A DNA stretch of 64,000 nucleotides, taken from IMG/VR virus record IMGVR_UViG_2721755646_000005, one strand, 5' to 3'. Below are positions 15,001 to 18,000 of this stretch, piece after piece. How positions within the stretch are numbered: the stretch's first letter is position 1; each line of letters opens with the position of its first letter. The position numbers are program-made. The stretch comes from a virus. Lineage: Duplodnaviria; Heunggongvirae; Uroviricota; Caudoviricetes.

Positions 15001-18000
15001 GAAAGCAGACCGCAACGACCTCGCAATTGCTCACATCTCCGGAAGCCTGAAGGCGATGGCGAAAGACCTGAAAACACCGGTTATCTCCCTGAGTCAGCTT
15101 TCGCGCGATGTTGAGAAGCGACCAAACAAACGCCCGACAAACGCAGATTTGCGTGATTCAGGAAGCATTGAACAGGACGCAGACTCAATCATCATGCTCT
15201 ATCGGGAAGCGGTATATGATGAGAACAGTAGCGCCGCGCCATTTGCTGAAATCATCGTGACGAAAAACCGTTTTGGCTCGCTTGGTACAGTTTACCAGCG
15301 GTTCTGTAACGGACACTTTGTTGCATGTGACCAGGATGAAGCCAGACAGATTTGCACAGCATCAAATGCACCTGCTGCGCGTGGCAGACGATATGCACAA
15401 GGGGCTGACGTATGACCATCTACATCACTGAGCTAATAGCAGGGTTATCGTTACTAATGGTTCTTACTGTATATATTATTAAGTATATTCTTTATGCGAA
15501 TAAAAAAACTAATTGATCACGATGAGCTTCTGTCAACATTATCATATGACTCAGAAACAGGAATATTTAAATGGCTAAAAACAAATTCAGTAGTAAGAGT
15601 AAAAGGTAGTATTGCTGGAGGTGTTAGTGGTGGTTATATATGCATTAGTATAAATAATGTTTTGTATAAGGCGCATAGACTTGCTTGGTTCTATGTATAC
15701 AAAAAATGGCCTCCTAAGTTTATTGATCATGTAAATGGGAACAGACTTGATAATAGGATTTCAAACCTAAGACTGGCAACAGAAGAGCAGAATGCAAGAA
15801 ACATTGTAGGGAATAGATTAAACACATCCGGTGCAATTGGAGTGTCTTGGTATAAGCCAACTGGCAGGTGGAAGTCTTATGTTGGTTATAAAAATAAGAC
15901 AATATCGTTAGGGTATTTCGATAGCAAAGAAGATGCAGCATTCATAGCAGCACTAGCAAGAAAGAAACTATATGGAACTTATGCGAGTAAAGCACTTAAT
16001 TGCGAGCATGAGCTTTTATCTCAATTTAATAATGATGAGGATAAACTTGCGGAATATCTTAAGGAAAAATATAAAAGGACTCGAAAGCGTGTTAAAAAAA
16101 GATAAAGGCCTGCTGGTAATCGCAGGCCTTTTTATTTGGGGGAGAGGGAAGTCATGAATCTGGACAAGCAAGATGCACAAACTATTAGCTCATACATAAG
16201 GGCATCAAGACCAGATTACAAAGGTCCGGTATTCGTAGATTTATCTCGCCTTGAATAGATTTACATGTGGAAAGCAAGGTTACTTACGCATTTTGTTATT
16301 CGAACGATGACTAGCAACATTACAAAACCAATGTAACTGGAAGAGGTGAATATGAGCACACTCGCAGACCTTATTCATGCCGATATGGCTGAAGATGGAG
16401 CAAGGCGTAATAGGTACTGGAAATCATCGAGCCTTCCAGTTTGTGAAAGATTCAATCACAGGCCAAAACCAAAACGTAGCCGACGAGACAAAGTGTTGAA
16501 AAAACTCATGCAAATTAACATGGCTGGTTTTGTCAGATTCGTGAGTGAAACGACTAACGGTGATTGATATGGACGAATCAAGAAAGCAGTTTGAGGAATA
16601 CGTTGCCAAAAAATTGAGATTACCATTCGAGATGATAACCGAGGCAAGAAATGGTGATAGGTACTTCGCATTTTCAAGCATGGATATTCGTCACTCCTTA
16701 AATGATTGGTGGGCTTTATGGCAGGCATCGCGAGCAGCTATTGAACTGGATATCGACTGGCCCGAATCGAATGACGACCTTTGGAAAGATGGTGAAGAAG
16801 GTGCTTATGCGATGGGTTATGAGGATGGGCGTGACAAAACGGTAATTGCAGTAATGAAAGCTATCAGAGCCGCTGGAATTAAAGAGAAGAATTTTCGATG
16901 AAGCAAACAATCTTCCTCCGAACTAAGCAACAACAGCAAGCTGCAATAAATGCCATCCTCGCAACACCACTCGATAAAGACAAGCCAGTCACCATCCGCA
17001 TTACTGACTACAAGCGCAACCTTGACCAGAACGCAAAATTTCACGCGATGCTGGCGGATATCGCTCGTCAGGTTCAATGGTGCGGCAAATGGTTAAAACC
17101 AGAACAATGGAAGGTTTTGTTGATCAGCGGTCATGCAGTGGCAACAAAGCAGGAAGCTGATGTTTTGCCCGGGCTTGAAGGCGAATACGTCAACATTCGC
17201 GAAAGCAGCGCGCAGATGAGTGTGAAGCGTATGGCAAGTCTGATTGAGTACACGACAGCATGGGCTATTGGTCAGGGTGTCAGATTTACCGACAGGAGGT
17301 ACGAATGAGACGACAGCGACGAAGTATCACCGACATAATCTGTGAAAACTGCAAATACCTTCCAACGAAACGCTCCAGAAATAAACCCAAGCCAATCCCA
17401 AAAGAATCTGACGTAAAAACCTTCAACTACACGGCTCACCTGTGGGATATCCGGTGGCTAAGACATCGTGCGAGGAATACAAGGGGGTTGACGTGATGAT
17501 TTATCCGGGGCTATATTCCTCACACGCCAGCAAAATCTGGCGTCGGGATTGGCGTCCTGGATAGAGACCGCGACAGATACACGCCGCGAGCGTGTTTTTT
17601 ATTGTCGTATGCACGCGCACATCTGAATTATGGTGGGCTGTGTGGGGGCGGAGAGATCCGCGCCGGTCGGTTTCCCGGTTACGCCAACCCTGCACAGTTC
17701 ACCACCAGACGATTGGCGTCGTCGGTGGTGAGTTATTAAGAAACCACTCGAGGGCGTCATTATGACAACTCAAATCTCTGTTGAAACTCTCTCCCCGATC
17801 ACCCATAACCAGATTCCTGTTATTACCACCGAACTTTTGGCGCAGTTGTACGGTGCTGAAGTTAAGAACATTCAAAATAACTACGCCAGAAATGCTGAGC
17901 GCTTTATTGAAGGAAAGCATTTTTTCAAAGTGGCTGGCGATGCCCTGAAAAATTTGCGGGTTACTTTAAGTAACTCACAAAATTTGCAACCATCTTTAAG

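Follow-up and report, generated by a model that had tools for sequence, protein, structure and literature searches.

I-HmuI of the Bacillus phage SPO1, the closest solved relative of the protein described here, is a nickase whose gene lies in a group I intron of the DNA polymerase gene. Phage T4 carries free-standing homing endonuclease genes (HEGs) of the HNH_3 type, MobA-E, which spread by cutting the HEG-less allele, with recombinational repair completing the transfer. Proteins that combine an HNH domain with a C-terminal AP2 domain are a recognised HEG family, and AP2 domains are described as favoring GC-rich sequences (Magnani et al. 2004, as cited in PMC10448857).

A stretch of 64,000 nucleotides (here called the window) from a Stx-converting lambdoid prophage of E. 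coli O157:H7 was analyzed. An AT-rich cassette within it is probably a free-standing HNH-AP2 HEG inserted in the lambdoid ninA/tR2 linker (Table 1). Insertion of a free-standing homing endonuclease is the best reading because the island is not universal among related phages and because both profile and fold searches support a nuclease.

Table 1. Features of the occupied ninA/tR2 linker and its surroundings (positions in the window)
Feature	Position	Strand	Basis or remark
ninA/tR2 linker, left arm (backbone)	15412-15443	+	begins at the 'ninA' ATG overlapping the helicase TGA
34-aa hydrophobic chimeric ORF	15412-15516	+	'ninA' codons 1-10/11 fused to insert sequence
Insertion-linked SNP	15439	+	G in this prophage, A at empty sites; 5 nt upstream of the start of the cassette
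Inserted cassette (probable HEG)	15444-16105	+	662 bp, AT-rich; blastn breakpoints against Nil2 and 2851, junction alignment
HNH-AP2 endonuclease gene, 203 aa	15494-16105	+	ORF, Pfam, phrog_99, homolog alignment, predicted fold
HNH (beta-beta-alpha-metal) catalytic motif, residues 78-103, DHVNGNRLDNRISNLRLATEEQNARN	15725-15802	+	homolog alignment
AP2 DNA-binding domain (predicted), residues 114-161	15833-15976	+	three-stranded sheet plus helix
tR2 and remainder of right linker arm (backbone)	16104-16152	+	stem-loop 16104-16131 plus T tract; terminator scan
Small nin-region ORF, 34 aa from ATG at 16155	16155-16258	+	phrog_21123, E 2.9e-20; downstream cluster D6

Base composition dropped sharply after the helicase gene, as an earlier note on this DNA had observed, from a GC fraction of 0.50-0.55 in that gene to 0.33-0.36 downstream. 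With a GC fraction of 0.332 (window mean 0.51, sd 0.064), the cassette itself is the minimum among all 662-bp windows of the 64 kb. It holds only one gene, with 50 nt of inserted sequence before the ORF and 0 nt after it. Comparison with relatives lacking the island, which the note had proposed, gave the borders. Phages Nil2 and 2851 have O and helicase genes 99.75-99.9% identical to those of the window and no cassette, and they define the empty site. By blastn, window positions 13001-15443 correspond to Nil2 2-2444 at 99.75% identity, and 16102-16152 to Nil2 2437-2488. The cut point is uncertain by 3 nt because AGG is present on both sides, and in the junction alignment the flanks of the cassette form an imperfect 8-bp repeat (ATAGCAGG / ATAA-AGG).

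The conserved linker is ~75 bp long, consists of the 'ninA' ATG and first codons followed by tR2, and lies between the last gene of the replication module and the nin region; around the cassette it is divided into arms of 32 bp on the left and ~45 bp on the right. Uninterrupted linkers were found in lambda (40567-40636), 434, 21, H-19B, and P22. In Nil2, 2851, and lambda the left arm runs directly into tR2, and in these HEG-less phages, as in 434, 21, and P22, the stop codon of the upstream gene is followed at once by the terminator. Homology among occupied loci of different phages starts at 15412, the first base of the left arm, and this arm is identical in the window, HK022, and PA28 despite their differing upstream genes. 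On the other side, homology with Nil2, HK022, and PA28 stops at 16146-16152, and positions 16153-16340 belong to a separate downstream mosaic module of the nin region that is unrelated to the insert. A search of the window for paralogs of the HEG or a second linker found none. By these alignments the insertion point is within the ninA/tR2 linker, past the 3' end of the replication module.

The island had originally been drawn from 15412 to 16340 as an insertion into the replication module that ended in its own strong terminator. A foreign AT-rich insert and its reading as a free-standing HEG were both supported, but its true extent is that of the cassette, the rest being backbone or the separate nin module, and its site is the downstream linker, with no tie to the helicase. 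The hairpin is also real but lies outside the insert, the border of which is directly 5' of the stem. From its sequence and position the terminator is the phage's own tR2, which is annotated in Nil2 (AJ413274) at the homologous position. The tR2 region is 93-100% identical among lambda, 434, 21, P22, H-19B, and most Stx phages; its stem is GC-rich (AGGCCTGC...GCAGGCCT), and the predicted RNA fold of -20.3 kcal/mol is alike in the occupied and empty forms.

The small hydrophobic ORF of the earlier note was likewise found, with its ATG overlapping the helicase TGA, but this start belongs to the resident 'ninA'. Empty sites encode a 'ninA' of 25-27 aa, and the same 34-aa peptide is encoded at 21 of the 23 occupied loci; as judged from these sequences, the ORF is a by-product chimera of the resident 'ninA' ORF. 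Its only family matches were weak ones: phrog_5907 (E 4e-4, residues 1-12) and phrog_19198 (E 0.005). The 3' end overlaps the start of the HNH-AP2 gene by 23 nt, so that the ATG of the latter sits inside the chimeric ORF, and no Shine-Dalgarno sequence was found before this ATG. The overlap may provide translational coupling to the HNH gene. A frameshift fusion of the two reading frames at an A7 run was considered and rejected: a +1 shift would be required, and an A8 variant present at one locus (L133) merely truncates the HNH protein.

The 203-aa product had been described as a protein with an HNH-like motif and an AP2-like segment, and profile and fold searches supported both assignments. 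The nuclease motif was recovered above threshold by Pfam HNH_3 (PF13392; E 2.9e-15, score 56.1 bits, cut-off 24.8, with the whole profile matched, 1-46 of 46) and by phrog_99, 'HNH endonuclease' (E 9e-72). The Pfam AP2 match (E 1.6e-6, 28.7 bits) was under the gathering cut-off of 33.3, and this assignment is backed by the predicted fold. In the AF2 model (pLDDT 85.6) the N-terminal half is I-HmuI-like, with an N-terminal sheet plus HNH, while the C-terminal half has the AP2 fold and is followed by a basic tail of ~35 aa. The strand-strand-helix of the HNH motif is predicted at residues 76-79, 92-95, and 97-101. Across 40 homologs D78, H79, N87, N91, and N103 were invariant and N100 was at least 90% conserved; D78, H79, and N100 align with D74, H75, and N96 of I-HmuI. 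The nearest relatives, all uncharacterized, showed 62% and then at most 53% identity in local BLASTP, and at most 48% across the 40-sequence alignment. In GenBank and RefSeq (PA28, 1717, WGPS6, and PGAP genomes) the gene is already annotated as 'HNH endonuclease' or 'homing endonuclease'. No NCBIfam model matched the 203-aa protein or the 34-aa ORF, and the literature search returned family-level papers and none on this lambdoid element.

Approximately 5% of linker sites were occupied (20 of ~400 phage records). Among 5426 E. coli genomes, 125 carried the cassette at a total of 137 places, compared with ~2,800 empty places, and a single genome had up to six empty linkers. The number of independent transfers appears to be small because most occupied genomes belong to one O157:H7 lineage (84 of the 125, all with exactly the same context); a query with the ren context found it occupied in only nine of the E. 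coli genomes. Copies of the cassette are uniform in length and 97.9-100% identical (21 copies). In the window the upstream neighbor is a DnaB-type helicase gene, whereas HK022 has a P22-gp12-like P gene there and PA28 has O-P-Ren; the cassette was also found behind ren, P-type, and primase-helicase genes, and its place after a helicase gene is incidental. When flanks were grouped by sequence, occupied sites fell in six of the eight upstream clusters and five of the nine downstream clusters, every one of which also has empty sites, and single protein alleles spanned two or three unrelated upstream contexts. At one recombinant locus, L147, the 5' end of the HEG is fused with another HNH-AP2 gene that lies ahead of rusA, and the nin genes are deleted.

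One nucleotide of the left arm is linked to the insertion. At position 15439 all 23 occupied sites have G, whereas 119 of 120 empty sites have A and the remaining one has G (Fisher p = 1e-25, although the sites are not phylogenetically independent); the G turns codon 10 of 'ninA' from Thr into Ala. This is not strong evidence of co-conversion because a mere 5 bp separates the marker from the insert and independent transfers were few; by our estimate, the chance of always keeping such a marker through about five transfers is ~1 in 3. The C/T difference at 15433 was rejected as an insertion marker, since C predominates at empty sites (115 of 120) as well as at occupied ones, with Nil2 and 2851 among the carriers of the minority T.

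An unlikely alternative to homing is that the cassette is a passive passenger (a 'moron') that entered once by illegitimate recombination, via the ATAnCAGG / ATAA-AGG microhomology, and later spread by ordinary homologous or Red exchange in the 32-bp and 45-bp arms, with site cutting either never present or lost. The imperfect 8-bp repeat at the insert flanks is consistent with such an entry. The linker recombines even without the HEG, the eight upstream and nine downstream clusters being combined around empty sites, and because it is mosaic, with empty sites among many flank combinations, exchange in the arms could spread the cassette without an endonuclease. The homology boundaries are equal at occupied and empty sites, the frequency of the cassette is low, and its distribution is largely clonal; lambda Red is reported to be efficient with short or diverged homologies (PMC2327257). 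However, a passenger without a use should decay, and here the ORF is intact in 20 of the 21 fully covered copies, the catalytic motif is invariant, and dN/dS is ~0.2 between the most divergent copies. As judged from these substitutions, the endonuclease gene is under purifying selection. Also against passive spread is the finding that several unrelated contexts share identical alleles although the arms measure just 32 and 45 bp.

Purifying selection would also fit a domesticated or competitive role, in which the protein is of benefit to its phage or lysogen, for example by cutting competing lambdoid phages with an empty linker (marker exclusion) or by serving as an AP2 regulator at tR2, self-propagation being secondary. 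In favor of such a role are the early-operon position of the HEG and the frequent occurrence of empty linkers in co-resident prophages; AP2-domain phage proteins can be pure DNA-binding silencers (bioRxiv 10.64898/2026.02.23.707548), and HEG-like nucleases have been co-opted repeatedly (PMC10448857). We nevertheless consider this role highly improbable. The cassette occurs sporadically, at ~5% of sites, and has decaying copies, a pattern that suits a selfish gene the phage can do without, and the single PADLOC match was to the 'homing endonuclease' model PDLC03687 (E 4e-4), with no defense-system model beyond it; a defense-system role was rejected on this result. A pure repressor is unlikely because the HNH active site is fully conserved, while the competitive version overlaps with homing because exclusion and homing are mechanistically one act.

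A packaging-associated HNH protein like HK97 gp74, aiding terminase in cos cleavage, is brought to mind by an HNH protein in a lambdoid phage and by the need of HK97-type phages for one (PMC10448857), but is contradicted by the position of the HEG in the early-right operon, ~15 kb from the 553-aa ORF (31027-32688) taken to be the large terminase by size and position only, by its I-HmuI-type HNH_3 domain with AP2, unlike the small gp74-type HNH, and is effectively refuted by the absence of the cassette from the near-identical viable phages 2851 and Nil2. An intron-borne HEG was also rejected: an Rfam scan of 15200-16500 (E <= 1) gave three chance-level terminator matches and no intron family, and the short leader and absent trailer of the insert leave no room for a ribozyme. 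The search for internal antisense promoters was negative, with three promoter-like matches compared with 5.2 expected from shuffled sequences.

If the cassette is a free-standing HEG, as we favor, cleavage and active homing by the HNH-AP2 protein can be proposed as follows. Because the HEG lies upstream of tR2 in the pR early-right operon, induction or infection would lead to its transcription along with the replication genes; as it is without its own Shine-Dalgarno sequence, its translation may depend on coupling through the chimeric ninA ORF. The target of the protein would be an unbroken linker in another lambdoid genome that shares the cell, whether as a resident or by co-infection. There the AP2 domain plausibly contacts the GC-rich stem of tR2, and the HNH domain would make a nick or a cut close by. 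Repair by Red or RecA on the HEG+ template, via the two arms, would then copy in the cassette together with the adjacent G15439. An allele already occupied would be immune, its recognition site being split by the insert.

A more far-reaching proposal, which we regard as doubtful, is that the recognition site is the universal replication/nin linker and that induction breaks this joint in co-resident lambdoid prophages, driving module exchange. Whole replication and nin/Q/stx-proximal modules would in that case be exchanged among Stx phages in addition to the spread of the HEG, the unusual conservation of the linker might in part reflect this breakage, and the L147 recombinant would be a trace of such events.

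The element is real but ordinary, as HNH-AP2 HEGs are already an established family, and its practical weight is small given that the gene is already labeled in GenBank and RefSeq. What is new here are the exact borders of the insert, the identification of its target as the canonical lambda tR2/ninA linker whatever replication genes lie upstream, and the assignment of the terminator and the small-ORF start to the phage backbone. An active enzyme would provide a simple homing model in temperate lambdoid phages, a tractable one because HK022 has a copy 98.9% identical to that of the window and lambda has the empty site, and it could bear on the shuffling of replication and toxin-proximal modules among Stx phages.

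Among known systems, the plant AP2/ERF domains (TEM1 7ET4, AtERF1 1GCC, and WRI1 7WQ5) belong to eukaryotic transcription factors without a nuclease domain. HK97 gp74 is also an HNH-motif protein of a lambdoid phage, but differs in HNH subfamily, genome position, and role, and is conserved in the packaging module whereas the HEG here is polymorphic. I-HmuI (PDB 1U3E) is 19% identical to the protein of this element (sequence-only E 0.23) and binds DNA through helical/HTH C-terminal modules where the protein here has AP2; unlike the I-HmuI gene, the element is without an intron. The T4 Mob genes are, like the element here, free-standing HNH_3-type HEGs between conserved genes, but they reside in a lytic phage, and their products pair HNH_3 with a zinc-finger DNA-binding module rather than AP2 (PMC10448857). 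The two-module layout is shared with the HNH-AP2 HEGs of Magnani et al. (2004, as cited in PMC10448857) and the 'IPA-HNH' HEGs of vibriophage ICP1, which likewise have an N-terminal HNH and a C-terminal AP2 domain, are free-standing and phage-borne, and lie next to conserved or essential genes where genetic exchange has its boundaries. While the ICP1 IPA-HNH domains are too divergent for the HNH_3 profile, the element here matches it strongly, has the extra basic C-terminal tail, and resides in temperate lambdoid (Stx) phages, where its site is a non-coding terminator linker and not the neighborhood of a polymerase, RNR, or terminase gene.

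The AT-rich segment past the helicase gene contains 662 bp of foreign DNA (15444-16105), located directly 5' of the stem of the terminator tR2, because the alignments with phages Nil2 and 2851 break and resume at these points. The O and helicase genes of the window are shared by both phages, the HNH gene by neither. Window positions 13001-15443 correspond to Nil2 2-2444 at 99.75% identity (99.9% for 2851), and the alignment with Nil2 picks up again at 16102-16152 (Nil2 2437-2488). In these phages ATGACCATCTACATCACTGAGTTAATAACAGGCCTGCTGGTAATCGCAGGCCTTTTTATTTGGGGGAGAGGGAAGTG directly follows the helicase stop codon and constitutes ninA, a 25-aa ORF running through the terminator annotated as tR2. 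The insertion point is ambiguous by 3 nt, with AGG on both sides, the insert ends form an imperfect 8-bp repeat (ATAGCAGG / ATAA-AGG), and the last triplet of the insert is the HNH stop codon. Comparison with relatives lacking the island, which the earlier note had proposed for defining the insertion site, thus corrected its borders from 15412-16340. The sharp drop in base composition that it described was real: 300-bp windows had a GC of 0.50-0.55 in the helicase gene and of 0.33-0.36 past it, and the GC of the insert (0.332) was the lowest of all same-size windows in the 64 kb (mean 0.51, sd 0.064). The only other patches with GC below 0.38, at 56291-58750, hold a 291-aa ORF and an NleG gene, cargo typical near a prophage end.

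The prophage in the window is lambdoid and Stx-converting, and its host is E. coli O157:H7. Over positions 14500-17300, identity was 100% with phage vB_EcoS_phi330 and 99.9% with Stx2a_WGPS6, and the Stx-converting nature was confirmed by three tRNA genes together with an stxA-type ribosome-inactivating protein (RIP) ORF.

Features of the prophage around and beyond the insert
Feature	Position	Strand	Remark
IS-type transposase (rve integrase core, HTH_21)	10210-11100		just left of immunity region
cI	11617-12318	minus	then cro, cII
O-like initiator	13221-14042
DnaB-type helicase	14039-15415
203-aa HNH-AP2 ORF	15494-16105	plus	between helicase and small nin-region ORFs
Terminator-like hairpin	16104-16131		follows 203-aa ORF
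34-aa ORF, phrog_21123	within 16153-16907
DUF7301 gene	16346-16567
118-aa ORF	within 16153-16907		only C-terminal half (16717-16907) homologous to Nil2 ORF29 (94%)
NinB	16898-17308		after small nin-region ORFs
tRNA-Met, tRNA-Arg(tcg), tRNA-Arg(tct), stxA-type RIP ORF	21896-23191		tRNAs directly upstream of RIP ORF
291-aa ORF	56459-57334		no Pfam match
NleG type III effector gene	57559-58227	minus
PBP5-type D-Ala-D-Ala carboxypeptidase gene	59528-60700		probably a host DNA marker

The insertion site is the canonical tR2/ninA linker. This linker of ~75 bp (window 15412-15443 plus 16106-16152) was 93-100% conserved in lambda, 434, 21, P22, H-19B and Stx phages. It encodes a putative 25-27-aa hydrophobic ninA ORF through the terminator hairpin, its ATGA is or abuts the stop codon of whatever gene precedes it, and unrelated genes flank it, in 8 clusters upstream and 9 downstream. 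The empty form was found at 40567-40636 in lambda, where it straddles the ren stop, and also in 434, 21, H-19B, HK630 and P22 (93% identity), the P22 record annotating both ninA and the terminator. The cassette does adjoin the helicase gene in the window, as first described, but this position is incidental, because the empty linker is widespread and the cassette follows other genes elsewhere: a P22-gp12-like P gene in HK022 and a lambda-type O-P-Ren in PA28.

Only 20 of 50,697 phage records, HK022 among them, contained the cassette (98.9-100% identity), and in all cases homology to the window started exactly at the ninA ATG (15412) and stopped at 16146-16152. An IMG/VR scan gave at least 20 occupied and at least 120 empty sites among the matches listed. 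When the flanks of the listed sites were clustered (400 bp each side, ≥ 80% identity), occupied sites fell in six of the eight upstream and five of the nine downstream clusters. At least nine combinations of the two were represented, and empty sites occurred in every cluster that had occupied ones. Cassette copies were uniform in length and 97.9-100% identical, and one and the same protein allele could have two or three upstream contexts unrelated to each other. Of 5426 complete E. coli genomes, 125 had the insert, at 137 places altogether, and 84 of these 125 had it in the exact O157:H7 context of the window. A 70-nt empty-site query matched ~3,000 places in 2,051 E. coli genomes, and in 1,884 genomes a place covered at least 80% of it. 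Conservation of the island in all relatives, which the earlier note had set against an insertion, was not found: the site is empty in Nil2 and 2851, and occupancy was roughly 5%. These data show that the foreign DNA is a discrete cassette occupying one fixed position in a conserved linker, present or absent in backgrounds that are otherwise unrelated.

Profile searches supported both the HNH-like motif and the AP2-like segment noticed in the 203-aa protein. Pfam HNH_3 cleared the threshold by a wide margin, AP2 narrowly missed it, and PHROG phrog_99 ('HNH endonuclease') matched at E 9e-72, so the other objection raised beforehand, a lack of nuclease support on profile search, does not apply. 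In an alignment of 40 homologs D78, H79, N87, N91 and N103 were invariant and N100 nearly so; in the HMMER alignment D78, H79 and N100 corresponded to D74, H75 and N96 of I-HmuI, its catalytic and metal-binding residues. An AlphaFold model from the 40-homolog alignment had a mean pLDDT of 85.6. From the two alignments and this model, the architecture is an I-HmuI-like N-terminal sheet with the HNH motif (residues 1 to ~105), AP2 (~114-161) and a helical basic tail (~169-203) missing from most homologs. The nearest proteins outside E. coli were 62% identical (a recombinant on contig L147) and then at most 53% in local BLASTP alignments. The ORF was intact in 20 of the 21 fully covered copies, with dN/dS ~0.2 among copies, and the product is apparently a functional HNH-AP2 protein.

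The strong terminator said to end the island is present, but it is the backbone tR2 outside the insert, kept intact because the insert ends directly 5' of its stem. Its predicted fold energy was -20.3 kcal/mol in both occupied and empty forms, with a slightly longer stem with the insert (10 pairs vs 8). Likewise, the 34-aa hydrophobic ORF whose ATG overlaps the helicase stop exists, but with the borders defined it is a chimera that starts in backbone ninA, with the first 10-11 ninA codons followed by insert sequence. By these borders 16153-16340 also falls outside the insert, in a different mosaic module downstream that has a small ORF of its own (phrog_21123), and directly after tR2 (16153-16907) there is a second mosaic joint.

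With its borders corrected, the original reading of a free-standing homing endonuclease insertion is supported, and homing would proceed as follows. Because it lies upstream of tR2, the HNH gene would be transcribed from pR together with the replication genes, and because its ATG has no Shine-Dalgarno sequence, translation may be coupled through the chimeric 34-aa ORF. The protein would recognise the uninterrupted linker; AP2 domains favour GC-rich DNA (PMC10448857; bioRxiv 10.64898/2026.02.23.707548), and the GC-rich element of the target is the tR2 stem. The HNH domain would then nick or cut, with repair from the HEG-bearing copy via arms of 32 bp and roughly 45 bp. The main alternative is a passive passenger moved by ordinary recombination, since the linker is a mosaic joint anyway, though conservation of the ORF counts against it. 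A further suggestion, that the enzyme breaks the universal replication/nin linker and thereby favours the swapping of modules between lambdoid phages, Stx phages included, seems unlikely.

Among the listed sites, all 23 occupied ones had G at base 15439, 5 nt to the left of the insert, and 119 of the 120 empty ones had A; the G replaces Thr by Ala at codon 10 of ninA. This pattern fits the cassette and its immediate flank having been copied together from a single origin; with a marker so close to the insert and so few independent transfers, it argues weakly for nuclease-driven co-conversion. The single listed empty site with the insertion-linked G (IMG/VR L102, GAGTTAATAGCAGGCCTGC) is either an ancestral recipient allele or a precise cassette loss. 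The other Nil2 difference, C/T at 15433, was rejected as an insertion marker, being a minority polymorphism.

Several copies were rearranged or decaying. In Stx2 phage 1717 (L003, FJ188381, 59-2500) and in phage F349, an ISEc8 element has inserted 8 bp in from the left border of the cassette (homologous to window 15444-15451) with an 8-bp target duplication (GGTTATCG), cutting the HNH ORF off from the upstream operon and the chimeric ninA ORF. The recombinant HEG of L147 (3919-4516, Logan SRR10380363), known from a single assembly that may be a chimeric contig, matches window 15412-15690 at 100% over its first 279 bp, left junction included, and then becomes a different HNH-AP2 sequence (GC 46%) whose end overlaps rusA; it lies downstream of a Toprim primase-helicase, and most nin genes are absent. 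A copy in E. coli NZ_LR882978.1 (1583013-1583574; H100) has lost its first 100 bp and is annotated as two proteins, 'HNH' and 'AP2', and in IMG/VR copy L133 an extra A in an A7 run (codons 4-6) truncates HNH to 7 aa.

Database records name the gene 'HNH endonuclease', 'putative HNH endonuclease' or 'homing endonuclease', and a literature search found no publication on this element of lambdoid phages or on its target. The protein matched none of the defence system models. An intron-encoded enzyme was rejected, as was a terminase-associated HNH of the HK97-gp74 type, for which position and subfamily are wrong and the gene is dispensable in near-identical phages. N-terminal HNH with C-terminal AP2 is the layout of a recognised HEG family of phages, cyanobacteria and protists (Barth et al. 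2023, PMC10448857, citing Magnani et al. 2004). The window protein has the same layout, and the cassette is an uncharacterised member of this known HNH-AP2 family.
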